64,000 nt of DNA from Promethearchaeota archaeon. GTDB lineage: Archaea > Asgardarchaeota > Thorarchaeia > Thorarchaeales > Thorarchaeaceae. This document shows positions 13,576 to 42,646 of the stretch, in pieces (positions within the stretch are counted from its first letter, which is position 1; every line of letters begins with the position of its first letter). The DNA lies in NCBI GenBank assembly GCA_014728035.1, contig WJMJ01000071.1:32001-96000 (forward strand). The letters run 5' to 3'. A program made the translations under genes and the position numbers. The notes under the pieces were generated by a model, which saw only the letters and a program-made list of their open reading frames with translations, was not told the DNA's origin and did no database searches.

Positions 13576-13584
13576 ATGGACAAT

Positions 13585-19620: not shown

Positions 19621-19691
19621 AGTATCCAAATTATCCTGTTCAATGACGTTATAAGCACGTCTTCTCAAGAAATCTCTGAGGAGGAACCTTA

Positions 19692-20660
19692 ATGGAAATT
19701 GACTCAGGACCTGATCCATTTGCTCCCGATGACGCTCAAGCTAATGCGTATAAGGTTGGAGCAATAGAATCAGTTTCAAGAACATTCAATCTATTCTTCA
19801 GGAAATTTGGAACATACGCACTAGTTGGTCTTGCCTCTGCAATATATGCACTAATTGTAGTCATGACTCTATTAGCAATTCTACCACCCCTCGATTTCGA
19901 GACCCTTAGTGCAATTATCAACGCTCAGGGTGACTTAGTTGCAATATTTACATTACTATGGGAATATCAGGCATCAACGTTAGCTACGTTCTTGCTGATA
20001 CTAGCCATCCTTGCTTTAATTGGTACAATTTATTATACCATAATAGGAGGAGCAGCAACTCAAATTGCTCTTGATAACTATGGTGCACCAAATCGTGGTG
20101 ACTTTCCTTCGTCTATATCTAAGGCAATTGGTCGAGCTCCAGCTCTAATATTGTATCAGCTTTTCATTGTCATCCTAACAGTAGTTTTGCTTCTGCCAGG
20201 GTCTATTGCCATCGCACCCTTATTCGAGTTGGACCCATATAACATTGACATGGCTGCTCTAGAAGCTGCTATGACTGGAGCTCTACTCCTGCTTGTTGGC
20301 ACAGTCATTCTCTTCTATATCACAATTCGATTGATTCCAACAATTGCAGTGATTATGGCTGAAGATGTATCAATTGTAGAAGCATTAAAACGATCATTCA
20401 ATCTGACAAGTGGCAATTTCCTTCATCTACTTGGTGCTAGAATCGTATTAGCTATTACTATAGTTGTATTTAGTTTAGTCATCGAGTTTGCGCTATTCTT
20501 CATTCCAACTGGAATAGTATACGCGATTACGGCACTGATGCTTTCAGCAATTCTTCTCACATCATTTGATTACATCTTCACAGCGGTTATTTACAAGGAT
20601 CTTAAGGCCCGTAAGACTGTTGTTGAAACGAGCGAAGGCTCAAATCAGGAATGGTGGTAA
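19692..20660 (+). CDS. multi-pass membrane protein (GDPD-membrane-domain-like)
   Basis: Several TM helices; EALKRSFNLTSGN and VIYKDLKAR motifs; GGAGG SD. Confidence 0.6.
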   Translation: MEIDSGPDPFAPDDAQANAYKVGAIESVSRTFNLFFRKFGTYALVGLASAIYALIVVMTLLAILPPLDFETLSAIINAQGDLVAIFTLLWEYQASTLATFLLILAILALIGTIYYTIIGGAATQIALDNYGAPNRGDFPSSISKAIGRAPALILYQLFIVILTVVLLLPGSIAIAPLFELDPYNIDMAALEAAMTGALLLLVGTVILFYITIRLIPTIAVIMAEDVSIVEALKRSFNLTSGNFLHLLGARIVLAITIVVFSLVIEFALFFIPTGIVYAITALMLSAILLTSFDYIFTAVIYKDLKARKTVVETSEGSNQEWW

Positions 20661-20666
20661 AATGAA

Positions 20667-20738
20667 AGGAGGCCATTGCCTCCTCTACTTTCTTTATAAT
20701 ACAAAAATAGTAGGACCCCGAGAGAGTTATTCTCTCTC
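20667..20738. terminator. two hairpins between convergent genes
   Basis: aggaggc-catt-gcctcct followed by a T-rich tract, and gagagag-ttatt-ctctctc. Confidence 0.5.
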
Positions 20739-20751
20739 AGGTATGTTTTGA

Positions 20752-22083
20752 TTATTTGAGTTTGTGTTTTTCTATAAACTCCGCAAGAACATCTTCCAGG
20801 TCTGGTTTTCCTATTTCTTGAAGGTTATACTTTACTCGCACACTTGGAGTTTTTATTTTGATAAGTTTAGCAAGATCTATTGGAGTACCAATCACAATAG
20901 CGTCTACATCTGCTTCATTGATAGTATTCTCAAGATCTTTCATCTGTTCCTTTCCATAACCCATTGCAGGTAGAACATCTTCTAGGTGATCGTATTTCTG
21001 GAAAGTTTCAATAATGCTGCCTTTTGCATAAGGCCGTGGGTCTACGATAATTGCTCCAGCTTTTCTAGCAGCTATATACCCAGCTCCATAAGGCATATCC
21101 CCATGAGTTACTGTTGGACCATCTTCAACCACAATTACTCTTTTACCTTTGATTTTAGAAATGTCCTCTATGACCAAAGGTGATGCTGCATCAATAATGA
21201 TTGCTTCCGGATTAACCTCCATGACATTTTCGCGAACTTCTTCCACATTCTCGTAATCTGCAGTTTCGACTTTATTGATGATTACAACATCCGCCATACG
21301 TAGATTTGTTTCTCCAGGATAATATGATATTTCATGACCTGGTCTGTGTGGATCTACAAGCACAATAAGAAGATCGGGTTTGTAGAATGGAAAGTCATTG
21401 TTTCCACCATCCCACGTAATGACATCTGCTTCTTCTTCTGCTTGTTCCAGTATCTTTCCATAGTCGACTCCCGCATAAAGGATTACTCCCATGTTTATCA
21501 TGGGTTCATACTCTTCTCGTTCTTCAATGGTACAATTGTATCTGTCCATGTCCTCTAGTTTTTCATATCTTTGAGCTATCTGTGTTGTAAGGTCAGGATC
21601 GTAGGGCATTGGATGTCTGATATTTACTGGCTTGACTCCCATATCCACCAAAATTTGATTTACTCGTCGAGAAGTCTGACTTTTTCCACAACCCGTTCTG
21701 ACAGCACAAACTGCAACAACTGGTTTCTTGCTTTCGATCATAGTGGTTTTGGTTCCCATTAATCTTATGTCAGCACCCAGTGAGTTAACCCATGCAATCT
21801 TTTCTCCAACTGTATCATACGGTAAGTCTGAATACGCCAGAATGCATTGTTCAACTTCGAATTTCTCAATTAGTTCTGGAAGATTTTCTTCTGGATAGAT
21901 CTTTATTCCCTCCGGATAGAGCTTACCTGAAAGCTCAGGAGGATACATTCTATCTTCTATTCCAGGAATCTGCTCAGCGGTGAACGCAACCACTTCATAA
22001 TCTTCATTGTCCCTGAAGAAAACATTGAAGTTGTGAAAGTCACGTCCGGCTGCACCCATTATGATTACTTTTTTCCTGCTCAT
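20752..22083 (-). CDS. cyclic 2,3-diphosphoglycerate synthetase-like P-loop NTPase; probable arginine synthetase (ArcE-type)
   Basis: MGAAGRDFHNFN, AVRTGCGKSQT, RHPMPY, TIEEREEYE, WDGGNNDFPF, VEDGPTVTHG. ATG at 22083. Confidence 0.75.
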   Translation of the reverse strand: MSRKKVIIMGAAGRDFHNFNVFFRDNEDYEVVAFTAEQIPGIEDRMYPPELSGKLYPEGIKIYPEENLPELIEKFEVEQCILAYSDLPYDTVGEKIAWVNSLGADIRLMGTKTTMIESKKPVVAVCAVRTGCGKSQTSRRVNQILVDMGVKPVNIRHPMPYDPDLTTQIAQRYEKLEDMDRYNCTIEEREEYEPMINMGVILYAGVDYGKILEQAEEEADVITWDGGNNDFPFYKPDLLIVLVDPHRPGHEISYYPGETNLRMADVVIINKVETADYENVEEVRENVMEVNPEAIIIDAASPLVIEDISKIKGKRVIVVEDGPTVTHGDMPYGAGYIAARKAGAIIVDPRPYAKGSIIETFQKYDHLEDVLPAMGYGKEQMKDLENTINEADVDAIVIGTPIDLAKLIKIKTPSVRVKYNLQEIGKPDLEDVLAEFIEKHKLK

Positions 22084-22361
22084 TCTTAGCGCCGCCTTCG
22101 AACAAGTATGAGTCTTGCCCCTCGTGGGTACGTTATGAAATTGTCGGTCACACCAATTACGCAATTTCCCTGATTTTGCCTTCGAAACTCAAAATTTAAC
22201 TCCAAAAAATCGATAATCATTCCGATTAATCTTATTTTGGATAAATTTTAAGAATGTTCGAAAAATCGCAGTTACAATACAAACACTCATATAGCTCCGG
22301 TGAGTGTTTAACTGGAAAGGTGCATTGTGGAATACCTCTTGCACAAATCCGGGGTGCAATA

Positions 22362-22913
22362 GTGAAATTAGTTGATTTAGCAGCTGAAGCAGTTAAAGTC
22401 TTGAAAGAATATGGAGAAGAAGGTATCAGAAGTGATATTCTTGCAGAACAACTTCGGACTCCGAAACGACGAGTATATGATGTTCTTGCTGTGCTGCGAG
22501 CTTTGAAATTAGTAAAGACAAATCGTAGATTTAATGGTACTACCGTTACGTGGGTAGATCCTATCAAAGATTTTGTACAACGCAATGAATATGAAGATAT
22601 CAAATCACAATTAGATGAAGAACGCCAATCCCGGAAAGATTTGCAGGTTCAAGTTGCCGAGCTGAAGGAGCAAATCCGAATCACAAAAAGCAAACTTCGT
22701 CGTGATACACCCTCCATTGAGGTATCTGAAAAAACAGAATTCAATACGACTCAACTAAGAATTCGGTCTCTTTCATCAAGTGGATTTGCTAGTGTGAAAG
22801 ATTCTGGGATGGAGGTCTACATTGAAACGCATGAACCAGGAATGGTTGTAGACCCAACTGTTAGTAAGAAAGATGAACACGAAGCTTTACTTCGGAGTCT
22901 TCAAAGAATATAA
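22362..22913 (+). CDS. E2F/DP-like winged-helix transcription factor with coiled coil
   Basis: LAEQLRTPKRRVYDVLAVLRALKLV...VTW resembles the E2F/DP RRxYD signature and is followed by heptads. GTG at 22362 with GGGGTG at 22351. Confidence 0.65.
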   Translation: MKLVDLAAEAVKVLKEYGEEGIRSDILAEQLRTPKRRVYDVLAVLRALKLVKTNRRFNGTTVTWVDPIKDFVQRNEYEDIKSQLDEERQSRKDLQVQVAELKEQIRITKSKLRRDTPSIEVSEKTEFNTTQLRIRSLSSSGFASVKDSGMEVYIETHEPGMVVDPTVSKKDEHEALLRSLQRI

Positions 22914-23320: not shown

Positions 23321-24532
23321 GTGTGTTCATCCCTAAAACCTTCTGCTTTCATCAGCAAAGGCTTAATTGGAAACACATCCATTTTTCAATTGGAGTGGAT
23401 CGGGCTGGTTAAGACTCGTTTGGATGTTGCTTTCGTCGTAGATACGACAGGTTCAATGAAAGATGATATTAGCGCTGTAAAGGATAGTTTGTTTGATATC
23501 GTTGACAAAATCGTGAGAAAAACGGAAGATTTGGAATTTCGTTTTGGAATTGTTTCATATAGAGACCATCCACCACAAGACAGGTCTTATGTTACAAAAG
23601 TCTTCGATTTCACAGATGACATCAAAGAAGTTCACAAGAAAATATCAAAGCTAAAACCTTCTGAGGGCGGGGACACACCAGAGGCAGTTGCAGATGGTAT
23701 ACATGATGCTAGAACCAAATTAAGTTGGGGCGTCGATGCGTATAAGGTTCTTCTCTTGGTTGGAGATGCTCCTCCTCACGGAAGTAGATATAATTCACTG
23801 GGTGACGACTATTTTTCTCGTGGATGTCCTGAAGGGTATGATCCCTGCGATGAAGTTATCCAATTGAAAAAGGAATATGGTTCAACAGTCTTTATTTTCG
23901 TAGTTGGATGCAATCCATTGGTAGAAGAATCTTTCAGAACCATCGCAGATTCTGTCGAAGATGGCAAGTATTTTTCACTACATGAAGCAGATGAGCTTCC
24001 GGTGGCAATACTGGAAATTCTTGAAGGTGTTAGTGATCTAATTGAAGCTGACCGTAGAGTATTGACATATTATGAATCCCATGATGGTGTTTTTGACTTA
24101 CCTGAAGCAGCATCAAATATTGGAATGACTTTACGTGAATTAAAGACCTCTCTCTCGCGGCTGATTGAACTAGAACGAATTCCTCGTTGGCCAAAGGGCA
24201 GACCGTTATCTCCCAGTCAAATGGGAATAAAGGTAGACCTTGGAACAGTTCCAGATGCGATAGTTGGAGGAAAACCGTTTAAGTACTCCCTCCGTGTTAT
24301 GAACCCAAGTGCGACGATACTGAGTATTCGGGTTATTGTGTCTCTTGTCACATCAGAAGGTGTATCAGAAGTGACAAATGAACGTCACGATATTAGTCCT
24401 AGATCAGATAACCAGCTTGATCTGAAGCTAATTCCAATGTCTTTCGATGTAGGAAAGGCGAATATCAAAGTTGAAGTTCTCTACGGTTCTAAATCTATTG
24501 CAAGTCAAATCTATTCTACAAGATTGCATTAG
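23321..24532 (+). CDS. vWA domain + winged-helix + Ig-like domain protein (true start probably further downstream)
   Basis: MIDAS DTTGS, YRDHPPQD, GGDTPEAV, VGDAPPHG; then an HTH-like segment and a beta-rich C-terminus. Confidence 0.8.
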   Translation: MCSSLKPSAFISKGLIGNTSIFQLEWIGLVKTRLDVAFVVDTTGSMKDDISAVKDSLFDIVDKIVRKTEDLEFRFGIVSYRDHPPQDRSYVTKVFDFTDDIKEVHKKISKLKPSEGGDTPEAVADGIHDARTKLSWGVDAYKVLLLVGDAPPHGSRYNSLGDDYFSRGCPEGYDPCDEVIQLKKEYGSTVFIFVVGCNPLVEESFRTIADSVEDGKYFSLHEADELPVAILEILEGVSDLIEADRRVLTYYESHDGVFDLPEAASNIGMTLRELKTSLSRLIELERIPRWPKGRPLSPSQMGIKVDLGTVPDAIVGGKPFKYSLRVMNPSATILSIRVIVSLVTSEGVSEVTNERHDISPRSDNQLDLKLIPMSFDVGKANIKVEVLYGSKSIASQIYSTRLH

Positions 24533-24538: not shown

Positions 24539-25681
24539 GTGTGTACAATGAATCTGCAAGCTATTATGGGTAGAAATCAACAAGGAATATGCTTTGTTTC
24601 AAAGTCAGTTAGTTTTTCTGATTACGTGACTATATCATCAAAACATCAAATTGTAATATCAGAAATTCGAAAATCAGAAAAAGTTCCTGAAGGGTCAATT
24701 GTGATTGATTCTAGGTTGTGGTTTTCTCTTGATATATCCCAGGATAAACTTGTTTCAGTTAAGAATCACGAAGCTGTACCTAAAATTCATACATTGACAT
24801 TAATAGCTACATCTGTAAATCCTGAAATTCCGCATCATGAAGTCGTTGAAGAGATGCGAAATAGAATTGATGATTTCAAAGATGATCTACATGGGCTTGT
24901 TGTAAGAGTTGGGCAAAAGATTCCTGTTCCACGTGTTGATGTTGAAATTACTATTTCAGAGATTGCACCTATTTCATCTGATGGATACGCACAGATAGAC
25001 TGGGATAATGTGTTCAAATTCGTTATCTCTCCAGGTTCAGTTTGTCCTCCATTTAACTTATCTTGCGTAATAGATTGTGGGGCATCATCACATAAGAAAG
25101 ATATTTTTCAAGTAATCGATGGAGTATCTAATTTGGTCAGTCGATTTGATGCTGTCACTACACTTATTGTCAACCTATTAGAAACCATTCTCATTCAAAA
25201 AGACAGTCATCTTCTTTCTATGATTTGCTTTTCATCTCACCTTGATATAATGCATACGTTTGATTCCATTACAGGAGCTGAAACAGCTGTATCTAGTATT
25301 GAATCTCCCGATATCATTGAAATTGTTAAAGAGTGGTTTTATGAGAAATTGGAAGTACATAGAACTGAGCCATCAAATCCATGTATTGGTCTCGAAAAAG
25401 GGATTGATTTAGCAAAAATTCAACACAAAATGAATAATCATCCCACAATTGTTCTATTCTTTTCTAGTGGGTCTTATTCTGAAGGTCGAAATCCGGTTTT
25501 TTGTTCACAAACAAATCATAATAGAATTTCTGTTTGCACTATTGGAATTGGTGAACATGCTGACCAAGAGTTATTACAGGGAATTGCTGAATCTGGAAAA
25601 GGGGTTCATCAAGATTATGTGAATCTTGAACAAATACCCAAAATAATTTCGAAAATTAAAGAGTTCATTTCAGGTATATAG
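24539..25681 (+). CDS. Cdc48-N-like + degenerate vWA protein
   Basis: Paralogous to 31522-32799 (EIRKS, PFN..IDCGAS, VSR, PTIVLFFSSG, IGIGE..DQELL). Confidence 0.65.
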   Translation: MCTMNLQAIMGRNQQGICFVSKSVSFSDYVTISSKHQIVISEIRKSEKVPEGSIVIDSRLWFSLDISQDKLVSVKNHEAVPKIHTLTLIATSVNPEIPHHEVVEEMRNRIDDFKDDLHGLVVRVGQKIPVPRVDVEITISEIAPISSDGYAQIDWDNVFKFVISPGSVCPPFNLSCVIDCGASSHKKDIFQVIDGVSNLVSRFDAVTTLIVNLLETILIQKDSHLLSMICFSSHLDIMHTFDSITGAETAVSSIESPDIIEIVKEWFYEKLEVHRTEPSNPCIGLEKGIDLAKIQHKMNNHPTIVLFFSSGSYSEGRNPVFCSQTNHNRISVCTIGIGEHADQELLQGIAESGKGVHQDYVNLEQIPKIISKIKEFISGI

Positions 25682-25686: not shown

Positions 25687-26916
25687 GTGACGATGACTGA
25701 GGAATTAATGACCCGCTTACATGCGTTGTATCTGAGTGAAGAAATATCTGGGTACATATGCTCAAAACTCTCTGATTCATCAGTGAATCCAGGGTGGGTT
25801 GAGAGTGGCCTCATTTTGAAGGGCTTTGAGGGTCTCCTAAAAGATGAATCTATTCAGCAAGAATATGTCATTCCCACTGAACAAAGTATCAATCTTATGA
25901 TAGATCGAGGTATGGACTTGGTAAACAAGACCGGTCTTATTATCGTAGGAAGTCAAGGAATAATCTCAGAAAAACTTGCTATTTTGTTTACCGACGACAA
26001 GAAGAAACCAAATAGAAAACTGGCAATTGCATTTCGCTTGGAAGGATATACTCCTCAGGATATAGGCCGACTTATTTCCAAATATGAATTGGAAATCCCT
26101 CTGATGAGTGAATTTCACGAGCCCAATATTGATTATATTGAACAATTGAAAATAGATGTTGGCAATGGGTATGTAACTGATGCATTTGCTCTATCTATGC
26201 CTCGAGGAAAAATCAATCCTACAAAATGGATTCAAGAGTCTCTGGAAGAAAAATCAGATGATGTTATCTTCAGAACTAATAAATTAGAAATGTCTCCAAT
26301 CTTTGCATTACTTTTCAGTTCATGGATACTAGATTTTAAGGCGTATCAAGAGCTGAAGAAGGGTATTATCGCAGCTGTATTTATGCAAGAATCACATAAC
26401 GAAATGATCATTTGGGACTCTTCTCGGAAATATGCAATATTTGCAGTGATTAATGATATATCTCTGGAAGAAATCACTCATAGATACTTACTTTCATCAT
26501 GGCTTAGCACAAAAGAAAAAATGAAACCTCCCTCAAAAACCAAAGAGGTAGTCTTAGAAACAGAGACAGTAGATACACCAACGCGTCCAATCGTATCAGC
26601 TAAGAGAGATAAAACGAGTACAAAGGAGCATGTGATCCAAGAGAGGATTGATGCGATATCAACAAAGATTGAAAAATTGGAAGCTGCTGAGATGAGTAGA
26701 CGGCTTGGTATTATTGAAAAGAATTTAGAAGAATTGAAAGCATCTGAAGAATCTCATGATGCAATTTCTCTCAGTCCTGATATCACTACCATGATTGATG
26801 TATTTAGAAAGCGAATTGATTCCGTTGTTATGAGATTAGAACGGTTAGTTGAACGTTTGGATGACACTGAAAGAAGACTCGGTTCAAAAATAGGGGGTCA
26901 AATAGATGACAAATAA
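25687..26916 (+). CDS. hypothetical protein with C-terminal coiled coil
   Basis: 409-aa ORF in the operon, GGAG SD, heptad-rich C-terminus. Confidence 0.6.
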   Translation: MTMTEELMTRLHALYLSEEISGYICSKLSDSSVNPGWVESGLILKGFEGLLKDESIQQEYVIPTEQSINLMIDRGMDLVNKTGLIIVGSQGIISEKLAILFTDDKKKPNRKLAIAFRLEGYTPQDIGRLISKYELEIPLMSEFHEPNIDYIEQLKIDVGNGYVTDAFALSMPRGKINPTKWIQESLEEKSDDVIFRTNKLEMSPIFALLFSSWILDFKAYQELKKGIIAAVFMQESHNEMIIWDSSRKYAIFAVINDISLEEITHRYLLSSWLSTKEKMKPPSKTKEVVLETETVDTPTRPIVSAKRDKTSTKEHVIQERIDAISTKIEKLEAAEMSRRLGIIEKNLEELKASEESHDAISLSPDITTMIDVFRKRIDSVVMRLERLVERLDDTERRLGSKIGGQIDDK

Positions 26917-27175
26917 TCATAATCGTTTGGAAATATTATTTAGAAGATTGAAAAATCTTCAGTCCATCCTGAGCCGTATTACGAATGCTGAGAACCTTCT
27001 AAATGCATTTATGCAATCAGAATCCGGTGAATCATTGCACTCGGATGATTCAGCTGAAAGAATGAAGGGGATTCTTATTACTTTGGAAGAACTAGATGAA
27101 ATAATATATCGCGCAGAGGTAGAAGTAGATATCATGGAGGATCGGATAACTGCTCTCCAGGAAGTTGAAAGTTAG
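26906..27175 (+). CDS. small coiled-coil protein
   Basis: 89 aa, overlaps the upstream gene by 11 nt, helical hairpin pattern. Confidence 0.55.
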   Translation: MTNNHNRLEILFRRLKNLQSILSRITNAENLLNAFMQSESGESLHSDDSAERMKGILITLEELDEIIYRAEVEVDIMEDRITALQEVES

Positions 27176-29820
27176 ACTGATTTTCTTCTATTCACAAGAT
27201 CATAGACTGAAGAAACCAAATAGCCTGTAAAGCTATGAATTGAAAACTGTCGTATTGGAATTATTGAAGCATTAAGAGTTGTAAAGTAATCTTCTACTTT
27301 ACTTTGGTCAAAATCACTCCCAACTCCAAAATATTCAATATGGTATTGTTGAGTTTTTGATATTGCACGTAAAAAGGGACTTGGGTCGGTATCTCCAATA
27401 TCTAAATCATTGCCAATCATGCATACAAGAGTTGGTCTTTCGTTTCCAATATCTTCCATCATTTCCGCCACCGAACGGAATGCTAATGTGAAGTTATCTT
27501 CTCCTATCGGCTCTTTGTATGCATCGAGAATTGTGTAAATTAAAGCGGTTAGAACTTCTTCAGATTGCATATCATTAGAAAACGTGACGAATTCTTGAAC
27601 TATCTCTCCTCTTTGAATTGAGAATTTATCTACATTATCAGTCACAATACAAAGACCCAGCTTACCTTCACTTTGGTTGTCAATGAAAGCTTCAATTATC
27701 TGTAGAGCTATAAGACATGAAAGTTCCGCTCTAGAGATTTCACTTCCTAATCCTTCTAGAAATGATTTCAATTCTGGTACGAGGTCTACCAATCTATTAA
27801 ATCCGTTCCTAACAGAGTAAACTGTCTTTAATGGAATATCTTTGATATTCATTCCTTCATCTAAAACAATGCAAATTATTACATTGAGGTTATTGGTGGT
27901 CTGTAAAGGAGTAAATTCAATCTCTTGATATGGCACACGACCTAATTGTCCGATATCCAGGGGCGGTTCAGTTTTTTGAAGTGTTAGATATATTGGAGTT
28001 GGTTTGGTTTCAAACCATATCTTGTTTCCTTTTCCGTGAAGCCGGTTCGCTAATACTTCTTTGATTGCTTTCTCATGTAAATGTACGTAGGAAATCATTT
28101 CAGCATCTGATAGATTTCCAGGGGATTCATATGCAAACACTGCCTTTTGGATGTCATATACAAAACCATCGTATTTCACTAAATCAACCCTGGAATCTTT
28201 CTTCAAACGCATCAGGGTTGCATCATCATTTGATATCAGAACTTTCCTACTAGGACAATCTCCTTGGATTCCTACTTTACTTGGCCACCACTGACCAGAA
28301 ACGGTCTCAAGTATTAGTACTAGTTCATCTTCTTTGAGACCTAGGTCATTCAAATCTTTACTGCACAAGAATATGGTTCCATGATTCTGATGGGTTCTTT
28401 CAATTTCAAATTGAAGTGCAGGTAAAACCTCATGAGGGTTCTTTACACCAAGGATATCTAGTAATACTGGATTGAGATTACTCAACTTCGTTGGAGAATC
28501 AAAGAGGACAGCTCTTTGTTTTGCTTGTCCTATTATGGTACTGTAAAATATATCAAAATCTCGTGTTCGCATATCCATTCCTGTTTCTCTGTCCCATCCA
28601 GATATTATAGTAGAACCATCCTTCTCGAGAATCAACGCAAAACTCGATGCTGTTTTAGATGCTGGATCTTTTGCTGTAACAGCAACTTGATCCAGATTTA
28701 TTGTGCCTCCCATATCTCGAAGAGTGTGATCGACCGAAATAATTCCTTGAATTTGTTTAGCAGCTAAAACTTGTGAGATTCTTGATATCTCGGATATGAC
28801 TGACTTTCCTAACTTGGATTGTGCAATAAGACTTGTTCGACTCTCATTATATTGTAAATAGGGTGGTCTCATCGGGAGCAAAGATAGCAAATTTCCAGCA
28901 AGAATTCGTTGTATTTCCTTCGGAGCAGCATCTAAACTTTTGCTTAGAATGAAGCTTAATATTTCTGCAATACCGTCGCCTTTCTTTGTTTCAGGATAGG
29001 AACTAGAAAAGATGATTCTTGATGACCAATCAATCTTAGACTTTTTCTTTAGATGTTTGATGAGCATGTTTAATGAGCCAATAGTCGCTCCTGAAGTTGT
29101 AATTCTAACATGGGGGATATCCAGTAACCTTAGTATGTCCTTTCCCCATATCTTATGATCTCTTATACTCAAAACAAGTTTTGGAAATTTCAGCCCTGCA
29201 TCCTTGATAAAGATAATCCACTTTAATAATTTATCAAGGTCTTGAGGTGTGTTGATAAGTACAAATATTGGCAGCCCTGACCGAATATACTCTAATAGAT
29301 ACGACCTATTTGGTCCTTTGATTACATTATCCAATTCTTTAGCATCAATTCTACATGACCATCCTGGTGGATTCCGAAGCTCAAAACTCATCTCCTGCAT
29401 ATAATAGAATCTTGGACTATATGGTGGTTCCATTGATATTCTGTAGATATATTCCGTATTCGCAATTTGTTGATTTCGTGGTAGTGGAGAGTCTACGATT
29501 TTTAACAATGGATTAATGAAGAATAAGTCTATCAGCCAGTTATGTTCTTCTCTCTTCATTACATTTTTATATAGTTCACTTAGGATAGGTGGTCTTGTAA
29601 GATAACCATAAGCTTTTCTTGGTGTATAACGAAAAGCAGTTGGATACTTGTTTGCAAAATCAAAGAGCTGATTTTCGACTAATTTGAAATACGAAAACAT
29701 CCTCTTAGGAGTAAATTCCCTTTTTTCCTTTCCAATTTTCACATATCCTAATTCAATGTGTGCATCAGCAACAAGGAATCTACGAATTTCGCCTACCTCA
29801 TTATCTTCTACCACAATCAT
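27172..29820 (-). CDS. fusion of degenerate amidohydrolase + Cdc48-N-like + degenerate vWA domains
   Basis: The N-half aligns by eye to 29956-31446 and the C-half to 31522-32799; metal and MIDAS ligands are substituted. Confidence 0.7.
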   Translation of the reverse strand: MIVVEDNEVGEIRRFLVADAHIELGYVKIGKEKREFTPKRMFSYFKLVENQLFDFANKYPTAFRYTPRKAYGYLTRPPILSELYKNVMKREEHNWLIDLFFINPLLKIVDSPLPRNQQIANTEYIYRISMEPPYSPRFYYMQEMSFELRNPPGWSCRIDAKELDNVIKGPNRSYLLEYIRSGLPIFVLINTPQDLDKLLKWIIFIKDAGLKFPKLVLSIRDHKIWGKDILRLLDIPHVRITTSGATIGSLNMLIKHLKKKSKIDWSSRIIFSSSYPETKKGDGIAEILSFILSKSLDAAPKEIQRILAGNLLSLLPMRPPYLQYNESRTSLIAQSKLGKSVISEISRISQVLAAKQIQGIISVDHTLRDMGGTINLDQVAVTAKDPASKTASSFALILEKDGSTIISGWDRETGMDMRTRDFDIFYSTIIGQAKQRAVLFDSPTKLSNLNPVLLDILGVKNPHEVLPALQFEIERTHQNHGTIFLCSKDLNDLGLKEDELVLILETVSGQWWPSKVGIQGDCPSRKVLISNDDATLMRLKKDSRVDLVKYDGFVYDIQKAVFAYESPGNLSDAEMISYVHLHEKAIKEVLANRLHGKGNKIWFETKPTPIYLTLQKTEPPLDIGQLGRVPYQEIEFTPLQTTNNLNVIICIVLDEGMNIKDIPLKTVYSVRNGFNRLVDLVPELKSFLEGLGSEISRAELSCLIALQIIEAFIDNQSEGKLGLCIVTDNVDKFSIQRGEIVQEFVTFSNDMQSEEVLTALIYTILDAYKEPIGEDNFTLAFRSVAEMMEDIGNERPTLVCMIGNDLDIGDTDPSPFLRAISKTQQYHIEYFGVGSDFDQSKVEDYFTTLNASIIPIRQFSIHSFTGYLVSSVYDLVNRRKSV

Positions 29821-29955
29821 TGAGTTTTCACATCGGATTATATTATTTGATTATGCTCTTGAAACGATATATGCCTACTGGGAAAAGGCGACATATTTTG
29901 TGTTTACACAATACTTTATCATCATTTTGTATCATAGACTCTTGAGGTTAGCTAT

Positions 29956-31446
29956 GTGCTACATATCAGAGCGACTCGTGATATTCCTAGACAAAATATT
30001 AGGAAAGGTGATGAATTTCACCTCTATATAGTTGATTTTCACCATCATATGGGGCGCGAAAAAAGTCATCAAAACACACCGTCTGGAGCATATGAATTCT
30101 ATACCTTACTTTGGTTTGAAATGCAGAAAATTTCTAAAGATATGAGCGAGTCCGATAGTTTTCTTTTCGAGCCTTTAGGGGTGGTGCCTACTCCTATGGT
30201 TTCAGACTTATTTGAAGCAAAAAAGAGTTGGAATCGATTGAATCATGGATGGCTTATTGATAGAAGCGTCGTTTTTCCATATACTGATGACTATTCAATG
30301 AGTGGTTATCCCGACAAACCCTCCTTTCATACCTCAAATGAGAAAATCGCAGGATGGACAACCCGCCCGCCAAATTCAGCTCGTCTTATTGGTTTTTGTA
30401 GGGTGGATCCACTCGATGGATCTAAGATTTCTAAGGAATCAGCTGTAAAAGAGTTAGATTATGCAATTGGAACTTTAGGTCTACGAGGACTAAAATTACA
30501 TCCGTTGGCTCAATTATTTGTTGATGCGATAGAAGATGATTTGACTGCACGCGTAATGAAGCGAGCTGCGGAATGGTGTATTCCTGTAATTTTTGATACT
30601 CGCAACATAAATACTGCAATAAAGATTCAGAACCTTGTTTCTCAGGTACGAGAAGATAATCCTTCGTTATCTAATGATTTGAAGGTCGTATTAGCTCATT
30701 GTGGAATGAATCCAGGAGACTCTCGTCTTTATAGAATTCTTAGAGACCCCGCCATCTATGGTGAAACTTCCAGTCTACATGGGAAGGACATTCCCGTTCT
30801 TTTCGAAATGGCACAAGAGCGTATACGTATCATGGGTGAGAGCTGGTCTAACAAAATCCTATTTGGTACTGATTACAGTTTCTTATCTGTACAAGCAATT
30901 GACCTCATTCTTTTTTTACTCACTCACGAGTTTCCTGGCACTTTAGCTGATGCTCAAAAAATATTAGCAGGTAATGCTCTCACACTGATAAATAGACCAT
31001 TTTTCTCAAAATCCAAAACCATTACAAAATCTCAACAATATTCATTCTCTTATGATAGAGCTGAACCGATCAAGGAGTTTCTGATCAAGCTATTCCTGAA
31101 AAAAGATATTGATTTGGCTTCTTTAGACGTGATGATTCCTCCGTCTTCTACCTGGCCTGATTTGGAGCCATTGCAAAATGGTGGTTATAATGGAATTCAT
31201 TTCGACTCACTTATAGCTTCACTTAGAAAACGTGATGGGTCTAAAGAATTACATCTATGGCTAAGAGAAAATCTTGGATTAGTAAGACTATCCCTGTTAC
31301 AAAGTCATGGTGATAAATCTTTGAAAAAACTAGAATTAACGTCTGATTCTATACCTCAATCTCTTTATGAAGAATTGGAATCAACCAACGTTCAGACCGA
31401 TTCATTTGGTGAGATTCTAAGTCACGTTTCAGAGATATTTTCATAG
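29956..31446 (+). CDS. amidohydrolase family protein (Amidohydro_2)
   Basis: IVDFHHH, GFCRVDP, GLRGLKLHP, VVLAHCG, KILFGTDY, KILAGNA. Confidence 0.85.
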   Translation: MLHIRATRDIPRQNIRKGDEFHLYIVDFHHHMGREKSHQNTPSGAYEFYTLLWFEMQKISKDMSESDSFLFEPLGVVPTPMVSDLFEAKKSWNRLNHGWLIDRSVVFPYTDDYSMSGYPDKPSFHTSNEKIAGWTTRPPNSARLIGFCRVDPLDGSKISKESAVKELDYAIGTLGLRGLKLHPLAQLFVDAIEDDLTARVMKRAAEWCIPVIFDTRNINTAIKIQNLVSQVREDNPSLSNDLKVVLAHCGMNPGDSRLYRILRDPAIYGETSSLHGKDIPVLFEMAQERIRIMGESWSNKILFGTDYSFLSVQAIDLILFLLTHEFPGTLADAQKILAGNALTLINRPFFSKSKTITKSQQYSFSYDRAEPIKEFLIKLFLKKDIDLASLDVMIPPSSTWPDLEPLQNGGYNGIHFDSLIASLRKRDGSKELHLWLRENLGLVRLSLLQSHGDKSLKKLELTSDSIPQSLYEELESTNVQTDSFGEILSHVSEIFS

Positions 31447-31521
31447 TCCACCTCAGATTTTATAACACAAATTAGAGATAGCATATCATCAGATAAGGAG
31501 GCTACTACGATTACAAAATCA

Positions 31522-32799
31522 GTGAAATTGGAAATCATTGATGGTGGAGACCTTAGAGGTTACGCCAATTTGCATCCCGCTACAGCAAAAAGATTGAATT
31601 CAGATATTGGGTCGATTGTTATTTTTGAAGACCCCCATAGCAGTTTTTGGGGCGCAGCGGAGATTCGGAAAAGCAAGGATATTGATGAGAACCAGATAGT
31701 AGTAGACTCGCTAGTACTTGAGGCATCACTTCTTATGGAAGGTGATGAGGTAGAAGTAGTTCTTTATGATGAAGATATGATTGCTTTAGAGTATGTTGAA
31801 TTTGGATTAAAACCCCTCACAGAAGATGCGAATACTGATGATTTGGTTAGTAGAGCAGCTGAATCATTTGATACTCTTGAAAAATTAATTGGGGGTCGGT
31901 TGGTATATCCTGGTATGTCCTTTAATTGGCCAGAGTTGGATGTTAAAGTTGAAATCTTGACAACACGACCTTCTCTTTCAGGAAAAAGTTTTGCGAAGCT
32001 TGCTTTTGAGGCACTGAAGGAACGTACTGGATATCAGTTCAAAACTATCGGGATTGCAACTCCCTTTAATGCCATTTTATGCATTGATACAAGTGGGTCT
32101 ATGAAAACAACAGATGTTCCAGTACAAGATATTGCTCACGCACGAGAGGGACTCAAGGATCTTGCTGGAGACAATCCTGAAGTCCAAGCTTTCTTAGACC
32201 GATTTGAAGAAGGATCAAAAGTTAGTAGAGCTGAAGCTGCTGCTATGGCGGTCTTACTATATCTAGCTGAAAAAGTAGGACGCGGATATGGTGAAAAAGT
32301 TGCCGTAATCACTTTTGAGAAATCTGTGAGTGAAATGACATTTCTTGATTCTGAAACTGGTGAAGTACAGCCTTTTGTTGAATGTACTGGTCGTGAAAAA
32401 GCATTAGGTTTACAGATTATTAGCACCCATGTTGTTGATAAGGTCGAAGAAGGAGGTACTCTTACCGCAATGGGTTCATCGCTTCAAACAGCTGCTGATA
32501 TTTTGGATGCATTCGGAGAGAAAACCAAACCTACAATGCTTATCATGTTGACAGATGGAATGACAACTTTCGGACCTCCCCCTCTCAAAGTTTTGAAGGA
32601 GCAATTTCCAGATCGGTCTCGTCTAGTTATTTATTGCATTGGACTCGGTGAAAGAAGTGAGATTGATGAAGAATTGATGCTTGCAATGGCACAATATGGC
32701 AATGGCACCTATCGTCATGTGGATAATATGCGTGATTTGCTTGAGTGGTATGGACGACTAGCTACCGAATTTGCAGTTGTTGTTCGTGGTGAAGACTAA
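31522..32799 (+). CDS. Cdc48/VAT-N-like domain + vWA domain protein
   Basis: The N-terminus resembles the double-psi barrel (GYANLHPATAKRL...IGSIVIF...IVVD...EGDEVEV). Intact MIDAS: DTSGS, GTLT, LTDG. Confidence 0.8.
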   Translation: MKLEIIDGGDLRGYANLHPATAKRLNSDIGSIVIFEDPHSSFWGAAEIRKSKDIDENQIVVDSLVLEASLLMEGDEVEVVLYDEDMIALEYVEFGLKPLTEDANTDDLVSRAAESFDTLEKLIGGRLVYPGMSFNWPELDVKVEILTTRPSLSGKSFAKLAFEALKERTGYQFKTIGIATPFNAILCIDTSGSMKTTDVPVQDIAHAREGLKDLAGDNPEVQAFLDRFEEGSKVSRAEAAAMAVLLYLAEKVGRGYGEKVAVITFEKSVSEMTFLDSETGEVQPFVECTGREKALGLQIISTHVVDKVEEGGTLTAMGSSLQTAADILDAFGEKTKPTMLIMLTDGMTTFGPPPLKVLKEQFPDRSRLVIYCIGLGERSEIDEELMLAMAQYGNGTYRHVDNMRDLLEWYGRLATEFAVVVRGED

Positions 32800-34406
32800 G
32801 AGTGTTCGAATGCTTGGGACAGTGATTTCAGAGTCGGTATATCCATTTCTCTAATTTGGTCTTCTGGGATACTAGCTAGCATATCTTCTGGGATTTGAGC
32901 TAGAATCTCCGCTTTCTCTCTCCCGTACTTTTCGATCAAAGAATCAATCTTCTTGTCTCCAGTCAGCTCCAAAATTTCAGGTTCTGATTTTTCTATTTCC
33001 ATTTCTCCCATTGAAGAAATCAGCATTTCTATCTCGTCTTCAGTCATCGCTTCTATTGCTTCTTTACCCATTGACTCTTTTACTTCGTCAGGTAACTTAC
33101 TCAATAGGTCGTCTTTTTTGGACTTGGATTTCTCTTTTTTCGTTTTGGAGGGTGTCAGTTTCTTTGCTTCTTCGATTATTTTTATTGCTGTGGCATTACC
33201 GATTCCATCAACCTCCTCTGCTAGCTTATCGGGATTCGCCTTAGCCACATCAAGAACTGACTCATATCCAGCTGCTTTAAGGCTTTCAACGGTCGATGGA
33301 CCTATTCCGCTGATATCCTCAAGTGTTAGTTTCTTCTTTTTCTTTCTTCTAACTCTTCTAACTACCTTCTTCTTTTTCTTCTTAGGGGATTTCTTTTCAG
33401 GAACTATCGCTTCTTCTACCTTTGCAGTGACATCTTCAGATTCAGCTGTCATATTAAGGAGTGCTTCAAGCTCTTCAATACTAATATTCTCTAGTACATC
33501 TGAAGGCATACTATCCTTAACCTCGTCAGGAAGTCTGGCTAGCATTTCCTCTCTTGCTGTTTCCGTTTTTACTCTTTGAACTCTTCTTACTTTCCTGACT
33601 TTACCTCTATCTGTCTTTGGTTTCTTCTTTTCTTTTTCAATTGACTTCTCTTTTGATGCGAATGATTCCATCAACGAGTTAACCAATTCTCGTGCGGTTT
33701 TGGGTGTGAGTCTACTGAGGTCTTCAGGTGGAAGAGTTGCTAGTATTTCATCAGGGAGCTCTGATAATATTTCTGAAATCTCATCAGCGGTTGTTTTTGG
33801 CTCTATTCTTTCGATTTTCGATTTTTCAAAAACGATTGGTTTTCCAGTTAACTCTTCCTCTAAAATTGAGTAGTCTATCTCAATATCAAAGTCCTTATTT
33901 TTCCATTTCAGAAGAGAATCTATTGCCTCCGGATCCATCTGAATTTCTCTTAGATACAGTCGGATATCCTCTTCGACCATCCCTGGGAAATCAGCTATGA
34001 TCTTGTCAATTTCTTCCTCTGGCAATCTAGCCCATAATGGACCATGAATCAATTTTGAGAGCCCATTTGCACAATGGGATCTAACCCAAGAATTGGAATC
34101 TTTTAACCCCTCTAGTAATATCGGAATTGTCTTTGGCTGGTGGTAATATGCCAAAGCTTGTGCAGCTGCTATTCTTACATCATCTTCATCATCATTCATT
34201 GCTTTTGCAATATCATCTACTATATTGGGATTCGAGTATTCTATTGATGCAAGTAGAGCTCTTTCCCTCACAACGTCTGAAGAATCAGACATTGCTTGAA
34301 CCAAGTCCTTTCTCACTTCTGAATTTTCCCTTGCCAGTTTTCCAACTTGTTCGGTTTCAAATTCTAACAATAGACGTCTCGTTTTTGACAAAGGAATTCT
34401 CTCCAA
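32796..34406 (-). CDS. HEAT-repeat + helix-hairpin-helix protein with repeated LPD/E helical modules
   Basis: HEAT-type D..VR motifs; LEDISGIGPSTVESLKAAGY...VDGIGNATAIKI (HhH); four LPDE/IPED repeats; poly-Lys/Arg linkers. Confidence 0.75.
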   Translation of the reverse strand: MERIPLSKTRRLLLEFETEQVGKLARENSEVRKDLVQAMSDSSDVVRERALLASIEYSNPNIVDDIAKAMNDDEDDVRIAAAQALAYYHQPKTIPILLEGLKDSNSWVRSHCANGLSKLIHGPLWARLPEEEIDKIIADFPGMVEEDIRLYLREIQMDPEAIDSLLKWKNKDFDIEIDYSILEEELTGKPIVFEKSKIERIEPKTTADEISEILSELPDEILATLPPEDLSRLTPKTARELVNSLMESFASKEKSIEKEKKKPKTDRGKVRKVRRVQRVKTETAREEMLARLPDEVKDSMPSDVLENISIEELEALLNMTAESEDVTAKVEEAIVPEKKSPKKKKKKVVRRVRRKKKKKLTLEDISGIGPSTVESLKAAGYESVLDVAKANPDKLAEEVDGIGNATAIKIIEEAKKLTPSKTKKEKSKSKKDDLLSKLPDEVKESMGKEAIEAMTEDEIEMLISSMGEMEIEKSEPEILELTGDKKIDSLIEKYGREKAEILAQIPEDMLASIPEDQIREMDIPTLKSLSQAFEHS

Positions 34407-36216: not shown

Positions 36217-37041
36217 TTATTGAACGCTTCCCTTATCTTTTGGAACTTTTAGACCGCCTGTGCCTGCAGCTAAAGCTACGGATGCCGCTGCTGAAGCACC
36301 AACTTCAGGTATGTTGGTTGGTAACATGATTATGAGATTTGCATTCTTGCTAATTTCCTGCATGATGTTCCATGTTCTGAGCACAAAACCAACTTGTGAC
36401 TCCTCATAGATTTTTGCAGCCTTCAGCATCGTTTCTGATGCTTCGAGTTCAGCTGTAGCTAGAGTGATTCTAGCTCGGCGTTCTCGTTCTGCTTGTGCTT
36501 CTCGACTCATTGCATCTTGTAATTGAGTTGGGATAACAACATCACGAATCTCTACTGCTGTGACTTTGACGCCCCAGTGTTCAGTCTTTTCATCAATAAG
36601 TTCCTGCAAATGTTGGGCGATTTTATCTCTCTCTGATAGCACTTCATCCAGAGTAACTTTTCCTGTTGTTTCACGAAGTGTTGTCTGGGCTGCTAGTTCT
36701 ACTGCAATTGTATACCTTTCCACACTTAATATCGCTTTTTCAACATTGATTACTCTGAAATACATGACCGCATCTACGACAACAGGAACGTTATCCTTTG
36801 TCAGAGAACGTTCAGTTTTGAATGCATAAGTCTGTAATCTCAATGATACTTTCATTGCAACCTTGTCAAGCATTGGAGTAATCCAGATTATTCCAGGACC
36901 TCGTATGTGCTTAAACTTACCAAGCCGTAGCACAGCTACTCTTTCCCATTCTTTCAGAACTCTGATTCCACTCGCGATAAAGACCAAAATAAGAAACGCG
37001 ACAATAACGATTGCGAAGATTATTAATTCATTAAACTGCAA
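36217..37041 (-). CDS. SPFH/stomatin (slipin) family protein
   Basis: EWERVAVLRLG, GPG, LTKDNVPV, AQTTLRE, WGVKVTAVEI, AQAERERRA. TTG start with GGAG upstream. Confidence 0.9.
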   Translation of the reverse strand: MQFNELIIFAIVIVAFLILVFIASGIRVLKEWERVAVLRLGKFKHIRGPGIIWITPMLDKVAMKVSLRLQTYAFKTERSLTKDNVPVVVDAVMYFRVINVEKAILSVERYTIAVELAAQTTLRETTGKVTLDEVLSERDKIAQHLQELIDEKTEHWGVKVTAVEIRDVVIPTQLQDAMSREAQAERERRARITLATAELEASETMLKAAKIYEESQVGFVLRTWNIMQEISKNANLIIMLPTNIPEVGASAAASVALAAGTGGLKVPKDKGSVQ

Positions 37042-37171
37042 ATTTGTTTTCTCCTGTCCACACCGACGTGTAAACAAGAACAGTGTTTAACCGTTCTATG
37101 AGCTTTTATTGCACGAAACCATATGAAGTTTGGTACTGAATCAATGTAATTTTTTTCTTTCAAGAAGGCTT

Positions 37172-39213: not shown

Positions 39214-42200
39214 TCAATAGACAGTGAATTGTTTTCTTGGTTGTTTGATTGCTCTCTTAGGAAGAATCTTTCCTTTCTGCATTATGATTAGTTCAAGGTA
39301 ATATGCTGTAACCATAACATCAGGTGTGATCCAATCTACTGATGCTGTATACTGATCTTGGTCGGAGTCAGGAATTTCTATCTCAAACTCCTTGATGATT
39401 TCTCGTCTTGAAAGAATGCGCAATATTGCTTGGAGATTGTTAAACTCTCCTTTAAGCGATTTCATGTCAATCTTAATAGTGACCGGAGTTACTCTTTGGA
39501 CTAAACTGGGAATTTCATCACCAGATTGATTTCGGATTGTGAAATCTACCCTAAATATTGGCTCTTCGATAGCTTTCACTTTCAGTCTAAGCCGTCCTTC
39601 AAATACACGTTTTTCACACTGCAAGTTAACCTTGAGCTGAGCTGTACTCATTTCAGCCGTTAGGGGAATTGAAAACTGTGTTGGAATTAGTTTTGTTGTA
39701 TTTTTCTCTATTAGTACTTGTTTCGAAATTATTTGATTGGTTCCAGCAACCGATTCCAGAAATACCGTTAGAGTACAATTCAATAACATTGAAGATATAT
39801 TGGTCAGATGTAGTGTCCCAGATACAGTTTCATCTGGTGAAACAAATTTTGGAATTCCACTAAATGTTATTTTAGCTATTTCTTCTAAAATGTCAGATCC
39901 CAAATTGATGTTCTGTGTTTTCTGGTCCAATACGATTCCACCGTAAGACAGTCGTGCTATAAGCACAACATGTGATGGGCTGGTATCTGTCTTAGGTTTC
40001 GGTATTTCCAGTGGTCCAAATGCAAATGAAAGATTCCTGCTTTGTTTCACAGATTGTCTAAGTACTAAATGTTCTTCACCGTCAGGAAATTGAAATAACA
40101 TTTCTACAGCAGCTGGTTCCCCTAGTTCTGTGTTCCTCCTAATTCTCAGCCAACCTGAAATGCGCTTTCCAATCTGTGACTTATTTGGAGCTCTTAATGA
40201 GTCAATACTAACTCTAACTCCCAGATGTGCAATTCGCATTCTATCTGATTCAGTGACACTCAATTGAGAACCATTAAATTCTATCCAGGCTTTGATTATT
40301 CCCGTGCGAGCTTCTGGTGCTTCATTTGATATTGTTGGAACACGCCATCGGAATGCTAAAGCCTCAGAAGTTAAGTCTGATATTTTCATACTTGCTATGT
40401 CATATACTTCTCCAGTATCAGTATGATATGCGACATGAAGTGATGCGTGTTTTGGAATTTGTTTTCCTCTCGCTTTAATTGCAACCTCTCCATGAATCAA
40501 TTCGCCAGGAGAATGCGCTTCTTTAGCATCTGTTCGTAAAAGTACCTGAGGTCCCTTTTTCACGAATCCTGCATAAAACGGCTTAGATGTTACAGTGGTA
40601 ATCTCTTCTTCGTCTTCTAGTAAACTAACTCTTAAGACACATCTTTGGACACCCTCACCTGCATCTTCCGGAATTATCAACGGGGGAAAGTCCTCATGGT
40701 CTACTACTCTTAGTTCACCTTTCTCAATCTTCAGTGGTGTACTAACGGATGCAAATATTTTTTCTCTCGAAGGAGCGATTACTTCAACTCTGCAATCCAT
40801 CATTGTGTTGAATGGATAGTTTGTGTCTATTTCTCCAGAAAATCGAACTGGCGTCTTGCCATCAACAAATTGGGTGGTTGTCCCTGGTCTTGCAGAAACG
40901 CGCATCCAGTAAGTACTAATTGTACCAGTTACTGGGATCTCTCTCCCTGCGATACCTATTTCTGAAAATACATTGTAAGCTGAAACTCCCCGTTTAGTTT
41001 GAAAACTCAAGTTTTCAATATGGATTTGACCTGATTGTATTTTGGATATCGGGATGATGTTACTTTCAACAATATTTCTATCCGAGTCTTCTATTGTGTA
41101 CTTGATGGTAAGATTGGTGATATCTCTATCCAATGTATTCTTTATGGTTATCATAAAATGGGCTTCTTGACCTGAAAATACTTTGTCTGAATCGATAACT
41201 AGTTCTGGTTCAATTCCTTTCCACCAACATAGCCATGTCGGTAGGTTAGGAGTGCCATCTAACGGGTCATATAACCAGTTTGTACAACACTCTCGTGTAA
41301 TTTCCGCTAATCGTTTCAAAAGAACTACCATGTTGAAGTCCGATTTTGCAAATACATCAAGTTGGAAATCTGCACCTGTTGTTCGAGCTTCTACTGTTTC
41401 GCTTCCAAAAATGGATATCAACAATGCTTGGAAAAAGGGATTATCAATAGCATTTAGCTCTTCTAATTCATCACGAATTATATAGAGCATTGAAATAACA
41501 GCGTCTCCCATGAACCTGTTTCTCTTTCTGGATGATACTGACCCATCATCTTGGATTTGAAAATTATACATTTTCAAAAAATCAGAAATCTGCGCACTTT
41601 TACCAGGTCTAAAAGGGGCCCATAGACCTGCTGCTATTGCTGCTTCTCTGTTGGCTGCTAAAGTATTAGCACTTACATCCGGGACGAATTTTCCTTTTTC
41701 AACCATTCGTTTTGCCTTGAGTGCCAACGCTTGAAGTAGTAGAGCGATTCCTATCCTTCTGGGTACAGATAACTGAGTATCTGTGACTCGTATTTCTATG
41801 GTACCATAATCTGTGAAGGGAAACATATCCACCATTCTTGGGGGACTTCTATTGACATGACGAGCGAAGGCGTCTTCATCTGCAGATTTCAAATGTGGTA
41901 TGTATTCGAATTCATTACTAGGTCCCATCTGAGTTGTGTTTTTCCATAGACGAATCGATCGCTTGCATCTTGGTGCGCGAGTACGATTTTTCTCGTCCAC
42001 AAAAATTTCATCTGATGCCATTTTATTTTCAAAAGGTGAGTTGACCGAGAGAGCGATTAATTGTGGGATAAAATTTCGTATCATGTTGTATACTGCTATT
42101 TTTACACTATTGTCAACATTTGGTCCAAGAATGTGATGATGTTCTCCAAATGACAGATTTTTGAGGTATTCTTGTGTCGGATTCAATCCAGTTGAAATGA

Positions 42201-42645: not shown

Positions 42646-42646
42646 T

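Follow-up and report, generated by a model that had tools for sequence, protein, structure and literature searches.

A doubly inactivated fusion of an amidohydrolase and a Cdc48N-vWA protein, formed once and retained across several classes of Asgard archaea

A 64,000-nt stretch of the Promethearchaeota archaeon contig WJMJ01000071.1 (positions 32,001 to 96,000), called the window here and the reference for all coordinates below, encodes on its minus strand an 882-aa protein (27172-29820) with full-length orthologues at 33-72% identity. The evidence supports this protein being a doubly inactivated, fused paralogue of the two-gene unit next to it, which encodes an Amidohydro_2 enzyme and a protein with a Cdc48-N-type domain followed by a vWA domain (Cdc48N-vWA). 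We give a probability of roughly 0.6 to the account as a whole, in which a single ancient dead fusion kept the folds of the pair and has a non-catalytic binding role of its own within a ligase/hydrolase/adaptor module.

Results

Homology of the fusion to its two neighbours

An earlier note on this DNA, made from the sequence alone, had proposed that the 882-aa protein reproduces, in order, the 496-aa Amidohydro_2 enzyme (29956-31446, plus strand; Pfam PF04909, E=7.6e-13) and then the 425-aa Cdc48N-vWA protein (31522-32799, plus strand). This colinearity was confirmed by BLASTP and by profiles. The positions of the open reading frames (ORFs) and the head-to-head gap of about 135 bp that it described are exact in the window, where the intergenic region between the divergent fusion and amidohydrolase genes is 135 bp in the sequence (29821-29955). 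With BLASTP, the 882-aa protein matched the 496-aa protein with E=2e-4 (residues 229-315 against 258-345) and the 425-aa protein with E=1e-9 (residues 628-806 against 168-347). Profile-profile alignment, by which the earlier note had proposed to check the relationship, was significant for both halves: E was 7.8e-12 for the N-half and the amidohydrolase family (380 columns, 8-434 against 16-465) and 4.6e-23 for the C-half and the Cdc48N-vWA family (357 columns, with the N-domain covered). The motif pairs listed earlier sit in aligned columns. As an internal control, 20-odd unrelated pairings of cluster families all gave E>0.1.

When 1.84 billion representative proteins were searched with the fusion profile, there were 120 matches; each could be assigned to the fusion family or to one of the two neighbour families, none was a generic amidohydrolase or vWA protein, and the named members that were checked were all from Asgard archaea. 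As the matches were confined to these three families, the two halves of the fusion are specific paralogues of its neighbours, arranged in operon order. The 882-aa fusion itself matched no Pfam family, hence it does not reach the PF04909 sequence model at the curated threshold.

The AlphaFold2 model of the fusion (predicted local distance difference test, pLDDT, 89.7; predicted template modelling score, pTM, 0.75) has a (beta/alpha)8 amidohydrolase barrel fold in the N-half and a vWA alpha/beta fold at the C-terminus. Residues 1-460 (28441-29820, minus strand) correspond to a dead Amidohydro_2-type TIM barrel together with a C-terminal extension in common with the free enzyme. These are followed by the Cdc48-N-type domain at about residues 470-640 (27901-28413, minus strand), delimited by alignment to the N-domain of the free protein and by Foldseek, which matched it to the p97/NSF N-D1 region and to DEPDC5, and then by the vWA domain at about residues 643-878 (27187-27894, minus strand), in which the metal-ion-dependent adhesion site (MIDAS) is degenerate.

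The assignment of the 'Cdc48N' domain holds by Pfam, by PDB profile and by fold. Pfam CDC48_N was matched by 16 of the 34 family members (best 1.7e-6), the profile of the free Cdc48N-vWA family found the Cdc48 N domain in the PDB at 1.2e-4, as well as designed double-psi beta-barrel proteins, and p97 N-domain chains superposed on the model of the free protein with a template modelling score (TMt) of 0.68-0.74. The Asgard family therefore resembles the N domain of Cdc48, p97 and NSF (a double-psi barrel and a beta-clam) in profile and in fold; unlike those proteins, the N-type domain is joined to a vWA domain and not to AAA+ ATPase domains.

Loss of catalytic and MIDAS residues

The loss of the metal ligands and the MIDAS from the fusion, which had been reported for the window protein, extends to the family: the beta-5 His and beta-8 Asp have gone from all of the fusions examined, and the HxH motif and a complete MIDAS from nearly all. 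In the free amidohydrolases (21 examined) the D-x-H-x-H, KLHP, beta-6 His and GTD motifs are conserved, and D27, H29, H31, K180, H182, H248 and D306 are invariant in an alignment of 22. By comparison, the beta-5 His and beta-8 Asp are missing from 18 out of 18 fusions, P0053 being the only one with HxH; a relic GT- is present in the deep-branching fusions P0048, P0053 and P0059. Likewise, the DxSxS, T and TDG elements were found in nearly all of 22 free vWA proteins, and the MIDAS is lost in the Thorarchaeial fusions, with partial relics in the deep forms, such as P0117, which keeps DxSxS. With both sets of residues lost, the fusion can be neither a metal hydrolase nor a MIDAS binder of the canonical type.

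Within the Amidohydro_2 kind (PF04909; solved examples 3cjp, 3ij6 and 3nur), the fusion is thus set apart by the absence of the beta-5 His and beta-8 Asp and, almost always, of HxH. The fusion and the free enzyme both carry a C-terminal extension of about 120-150 residues that is additional to the Amidohydro_2 examples, and together they constitute an Asgard-only subfamily.

The fusion outlives the active pair

Genome counts refer to a panel of 400 Asgard genomes, and taxonomic ranges were taken from source names and that panel. The earlier note had cast the dead fusion as a scaffold or regulator of the active pair. This is weakened by four Thorarchaeial genomes, which keep an intact fusion without the pair. 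The amidohydrolase and vWA profiles match nothing in G315, G321 and G323 (95-98% complete) other than the two halves of the intact fusion. At the syntenic site in G315 the operon is cleanly absent between the fusion and a gene for a 536-aa HEAT and helix-hairpin-helix protein, which still adjoins the fusion after the loss; in the window this gene (32796-34406, minus strand; Pfam HEAT_2 2.4e-14, HHH_5 1.5e-13) is convergent with the vWA gene, overlapping it by 4 nt. In the closed genome G368, a 153-aa ORF holds only the first 73 amidohydrolase residues and adjoins an intact 889-aa fusion.

A dedicated scaffold or regulator would work only with the adjacent active pair, for example by hetero-oligomerising through the same interfaces. 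The divergent adjacency and the shared 135-bp control region, found throughout the Thorarchaeial order, are in favour of this, as is the loss of fusion and pair together in genus g15, whose three genomes (96-99% complete) have neither. Cross-pairing of the paralogous interfaces is also conceivable in principle, and binding is predicted for the free pair. However, the four genomes with an intact fusion and no active pair, of which two were confirmed at the syntenic locus, argue against such dependence, as does the fusion not being adjacent to the pair in Jordarchaeia and 'Asgardarchaeia'. We therefore regard a dedicated scaffold or regulator as unlikely, while giving it some weight. Because the intact fusion outlives the active pair, it has a role of its own and is probably not an obligate regulator of its neighbours. 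It would act alone as a non-catalytic binding or adaptor protein, whether as reader, as decoy or as scaffold for the same ligand or partner.

Predicted binding of the free pair

As the parts of the fusion exist as separate proteins, the earlier note had argued, by the Rosetta-stone principle, that the free amidohydrolase and the free Cdc48N-vWA protein bind one another. Complex prediction, in which each protein was supplied with its family alignment, is in line with this: the interface score ipSAE was 0.68 (runs 0.67-0.69), and the best of three controls scored 0.00. At least 75% of contacts agreed between runs, with a partner pLDDT of at least 79. The ipSAE mark used is reached by 58 of 80 solved complexes and by 2 of 110 mismatched pairs, figures that are a rough guide here because our own alignments were used. 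The predicted interface pairs residues 7-179 of the Cdc48N-type domain with amidohydrolase residues 33-58, 90-94, 113-134 and 307-313, which border H29/H31 and D306 at the active-site mouth. We know of no similar complex, so it seems unlikely that the model merely reproduces a known structure.

According to this model, the free pair would form a heterodimer, with the Cdc48N-type domain resting on the active-site face of the barrel, in contrast to p97-type N domains, which dock with UBX-type or ubiquitin-like adaptors. The fusion would then be a covalently locked, inert replica of the heterodimer.

A wider module of ligase, hydrolase and adaptor

Two features were overlooked in the earlier note, namely a third Cdc48N-vWA paralogue upstream of the fusion and a link, phylum-wide, to a GCS2-type carboxylate-amine ligase. 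The ligase in the window has 1164 aa (39214-42708, minus strand) and a weak Pfam GCS2 match (E=0.004); its orthologues, which pass the cut-off, are 28-37% identical over 640-1,100 aa. They adjoin the amidohydrolase-vWA operon in three loci (L013, L015, L016), being directly convergent with it in Jordarchaeia, a 'Lokiarchaeia'-labelled metagenome-assembled genome (MAG) and 'Asgardarchaeia', and one lies near the fusion in a second Jordarchaeial locus (L017). In families without the fusion, a shorter ligase is co-operonic with the amidohydrolase, with a 4-nt gap in f22 and in the order amidohydrolase-ligase in f13; in f19, also without the fusion, the gene order is vWA-361-ligase-amidohydrolase. 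The GCS2-type ligase is the most robust partner of the amidohydrolase and vWA genes across classes. A Band_7/SPFH gene lies 6.4 kb from the fusion in the window (36217-37077, minus strand; Pfam 1.1e-36); in two Jordarchaeial lineages (L012 and L017; orthologues 40-42% identical) it is the immediate, divergent neighbour of the fusion.

These gene associations suggest an Asgard module consisting of a GCS2-type ATP-dependent amide ligase, an Amidohydro_2 hydrolase and a Cdc48N-vWA adaptor. Since an amide ligase is coupled with an amide hydrolase and a MIDAS adaptor, the module plausibly makes and removes an amide-linked modification, and it is apparently specific to Asgard archaea. An analogy, and no more, may be drawn with the PafA/Dop-type writer-eraser pairs of pupylation, which belong to the same carboxylate-amine ligase superfamily as the GCS2-type enzymes (PMC7947786): the Asgard ligase, too, is genomically coupled to an amide-bond hydrolase, which suggests that an amide linkage is formed and removed. 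Unlike in the PafA/Dop system, the Asgard hydrolase is an unrelated TIM-barrel metalloenzyme and not a paralogue of the ligase, and the Asgard module is known here from its genes.

Other genes were seen beside the module outside the Thorarchaeia. In the 'Asgardarchaeia' locus L015 (ena:ERZ27227322 k141_731218, 6841-21893), the ligase operon includes a 791-aa CarboxypepD_reg/PEGA protein with a C-terminal EAP30/Vps36-like match, and the flanks of the fusion cluster encode an 1804-aa protein with a Ribophorin-II-like match and two Arf-family small GTPases. In Jordarchaeia, a 177-aa coiled-coil ORF immediately precedes the amidohydrolase-vWA operon, and in G117 a 293-aa ORF with a weak gelsolin-repeat match (L013:2543-3424; E=0.004) lies about 400 bp upstream of this coiled-coil ORF.

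Comparison with DEPDC5 and Iml1

When the model of the free Cdc48N-vWA protein was compared by Foldseek, DEPDC5 and Iml1 were its best matches over the full length (E 1.2e-14 to 1.6e-11, about 420-490 columns), and the same proteins were the top matches of the fusion model (8e-11). DEPDC5 consists of an NSF-N-like N-terminal domain (NTD) and then a Sec23-trunk-like SABA domain (PMC8534245). The N-terminal half of DEPDC5/Iml1 (Sea1), a component of GATOR1/SEACIT, thus has the same order as the archaeal proteins, a Cdc48/NSF-N-type domain and directly after it a vWA/Sec23-trunk-type domain, with no AAA motor.

A speculative extension, which we hold to be improbable, is that the Asgard Cdc48N-vWA family, including the C-half of the fusion, was the archaeal source of the NTD-SABA half of DEPDC5/Iml1. 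If so, a TOR-pathway scaffold would go back to a subunit that served for docking in an archaeal amide ligase/hydrolase module, and Asgard archaea would already have turned such adaptors into large non-catalytic scaffolds.

A related alternative to the ligase/hydrolase module is that the NTD-SABA half of DEPDC5/Iml1 has its archaeal homologues in the Cdc48N-vWA modules (free, fusion C-half and the 380-aa paralogue), which would act in a GATOR1-like complex that regulates GTPases. The Foldseek ranking and the domain make-up of DEPDC5 would fit this, as would the NPRL2-like proteins reported in most Thorarchaeial MAGs, for which no DEPDC5 counterpart is reported (bioRxiv 10.1101/2020.10.19.343400). 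However, the two archaeal proteins end at the vWA domain and are without the SHEN, DEP and C-terminal domains of DEPDC5; the free archaeal protein, by its sequence motifs, would have a working MIDAS; and the archaeal partners are a hydrolase and a ligase rather than NPRL2/3. None of the 34 family members matched Pfam IML1 at E<=1, the fusion had no match to it either, and no longin signal was found among the conserved neighbours by Pfam or PDB profile. The likeness to DEPDC5 is one of architecture only, homology not being established, and we consider a GATOR1-like complex to be quite improbable.

A 204-aa ORF (15182-15796, minus strand) had been followed as a lead towards an NPRL2-like or longin component of GATOR1 and was dropped, as it gave weak HU-like and winged helix-turn-helix Pfam matches and no PDB relative. 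The protein is 75-81% identical across Thorarchaeota, and in the Jordarchaeial genome G117 a homologue (L012:4088-4519; 27.5% identity, E=5e-10) is encoded 2 kb away from the fusion.

Distribution, age and direction of the event

The free amidohydrolase is present in 262 of the 400 genomes, including large families without any fusion. The fusion was detected in about 90 genomes and only in three families: f1, to which the window belongs (79 of 85 genomes), its sister family f2 (G311) and the distant family f16, which has divergent fusions of about 890 aa, one of them in the closed genome G117. By source names, the deep forms belong to Jordarchaeia/'Freyarchaeota' and to 'Asgardarchaeia'. Absence or pseudogenisation of the fusion in related genomes, which the earlier note had named as evidence that would count against it, was not the pattern found, with intact ORFs in more than 80 genomes.

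In a quick maximum-likelihood tree of the C-half, the fusion (18 rows), the free vWA proteins (46 rows) and the third paralogue (4 rows) each fell on their own side of a branch, with SH-like approximate likelihood ratio test (SH-aLRT) supports of 97, 97 and 100, respectively. This third paralogue, a 380-aa protein in the window (24539-25681, plus strand) with a degenerate MIDAS by its motifs, matched the free vWA family at E=1.2e-16 and the fusion C-half at E=4.8e-8 (hhalign). In the N-half tree, the fusion (19 rows) and the free enzymes (26 rows) were split by a branch with support of 100. The same three internal subclades, with members named Thor, Jord and 'Asgardarchaeia', appeared in both half trees, indicating that the two halves have co-evolved since the fusion. 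As there is one fusion clade in both halves, there was a single event, which took place before Thorarchaeia, Jordarchaeia and 'Asgardarchaeia' diverged. A duplicated operon, amidohydrolase followed by Cdc48N-vWA, became one reading frame, once and long ago; the operon in the window today, with two ORFs in one frame and a single TAG, illustrates how easily this can happen.

The earlier note had envisaged an old inverted duplication followed by fusion. The age stands, with one clade spanning three classes, and the inversion is not supported, as the layouts differ. The head-to-head arrangement of fusion and amidohydrolase is kept in the Thorarchaeial loci L001-L006 and L014. In Jordarchaeial G117, however, the fusion is about 12 kb from the amidohydrolase-vWA operon and on the same strand, and on an 'Asgardarchaeia' contig the ligase operon stands between the two. 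Inverted duplication therefore cannot be inferred, and the head-to-head adjacency is specific to the Thorarchaeial order, not ancestral. Jordarchaeial genomes (f15/f16; G117:C1:2917694-2919130) also have a second full-length free-amidohydrolase paralogue elsewhere (E about 1e-143).

Both half trees are unrooted, so the direction of change, fusion or fission, was taken from the distribution. Under fission, a single fused active enzyme would have been ancestral and have split into the operon, the remaining fused copies dying later. In favour of this, the trees do not fix the direction, and deep fusions keep relics such as the HxH of P0053 and the DxSxS of P0117. However, no full-length fused form examined has a complete active site, the split form is much wider (262 of 400 genomes against about 90), and its order relative to the ligase varies, as would more readily follow from an ancestor with separate genes. 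Fission is thus very unlikely, and the duplicated operon giving rise to a fusion is preferred.

Selection on the fusion

The earlier note had suggested comparing nonsynonymous and synonymous substitution rates (dN/dS) across relatives. As dS was saturated even against the closest available relative, dN alone was compared: it was 0.19 for the fusion (N-half 0.17, C-half 0.21), against 0.22 and 0.03 for the live amidohydrolase and the live Cdc48N-vWA protein, respectively. Identities to orthologues were 73/40/33% for the fusion, 71/46/50% for the amidohydrolase and 97/80/81% for the free Cdc48N-vWA protein. Across 21 fusion orthologues there are 61 invariant and about 100 near-invariant columns. 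The fusion is under purifying selection; its dead barrel is constrained like the live enzyme, and its C-half is much freer than the free adaptor. The conservation of the free Cdc48N-vWA protein (31522-32799) is on a par with that of housekeeping-like genes, which suggests many constrained surfaces.

That the fusion is a functionless relic sliding towards a pseudogene is hardly credible. In favour of this reading, the catalytic residues have all gone, the fusion evolves faster than the free vWA protein, and in one genome (G334) its frame is split and has internal stops. Against it, intact ORFs of about 850-900 aa persist in more than 80 genomes of several Asgard classes, the conserved columns are numerous, dS is saturated at a dN of 0.19, the inactive N-half (0.17) changes no faster than the working enzyme (0.22), and the AlphaFold2 model is compact and of high confidence. 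The same long ORF in all these genomes rules out an artefact of assembly or annotation. The G334 match (G334:C3:785286-787932) has two TGA and two TAG stops, with frames of 114 and 781 aa; a pseudogene or an error in the assembly could account for it, the sole such case noticed among about 80 genomes.

Other features of the locus

The amidohydrolase and vWA ORFs are in the same frame (31444-31524), and in the translation of 31402-31560 a lone TAG, followed by the 25 sense codons of the 75-nt spacer (31447-31521, plus strand), keeps them apart. Spacer length is likewise divisible by three in L002 (75 nt), L005 (78 nt) and L016 (141 nt), and is not in L006 and L013. This could be a coincidence, or it could permit occasional read-through to give a live fused form.

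Upstream of the fusion, a 403-aa integrin-beta-like vWA protein (23321-24532, plus strand; Pfam VWA_4 6.9e-14, VWA 3e-11) precedes the 380-aa paralogue and is, by synteny, a conserved member of the cluster in Thorarchaeia. Between this vWA operon and the fusion are the genes for a 409-aa protein with a coiled-coil tail and an overlapping 89-aa ORF (25687-27175, plus strand), a region conserved in L002-L004, L006 and L022; for the 409-aa protein no Pfam family was found, and profile searches of the PDB gave no relative, only coiled-coil noise. Further upstream, in every Thorarchaeial locus examined, the cluster keeps synteny with an E2F/DP-type winged-helix protein (22254-22913, plus strand; Pfam E2F_TDP 4.6e-8). 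The gene of this E2F-like protein is always adjoined by one for a 443-470-aa protein (20752-22164, minus strand) with a weak CobW/HypB/UreG-type GTPase match, which is 79-90% identical across Thorarchaeia.

Discussion

Several observations weigh against the account of an independent, non-catalytic binding protein with the folds of the active pair. The absence of a gene from draft MAGs is never certain, which bears on the genomes that appear to have lost the pair. The C-half of the fusion evolves about six times faster than the free vWA protein (dN 0.21 against 0.03), and so part of the constraint on the fusion is relaxed. The suggestion of a locked replica rests on homology and on a fusion model with a pTM of 0.75, and the positions of the predicted interface are no more conserved than others in the fusion and free families, in a comparison of surface positions with a set that includes the buried core. 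Finally, no giant-ligase orthologue was detectable in G321 and G323 with a single-protein query, so the tie of the fusion to the ligase is loose.

Pseudoenzymes and gene fusions are each well known. The Asgard fusion resembles pseudoenzyme paralogues in that a dead paralogue is kept beside its live counterpart, and Rosetta-stone fusions in that its parts exist as separate, predicted-interacting proteins. Unlike the usual examples of either, both members of an operon were copied, both are dead, they were fused once and the product was kept across Asgard classes, outlasting the live pair in some genomes. A literature search for this gene combination in Asgard archaea found no paper describing the family or the gene set, and public annotations give only 'hypothetical', 'amidohydrolase family' or 'vWA domain' proteins.

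What is unusual is that a fusion covering a whole operon, and dead in both halves, has persisted from before the split of the Asgard classes and has outlived its live template. It would be a clean natural case of an enzyme-adaptor complex being turned into a pure binding protein. As its parts are small, soluble-looking and confidently modelled, binding and activity should be directly accessible by heterologous expression. The domain layout of the adaptor is that of the front half of DEPDC5, a eukaryotic nutrient-signalling scaffold, and the fusion serves as a built-in pointer to a predicted heterodimer within an undescribed, apparently Asgard-specific module of ligase, hydrolase and adaptor.

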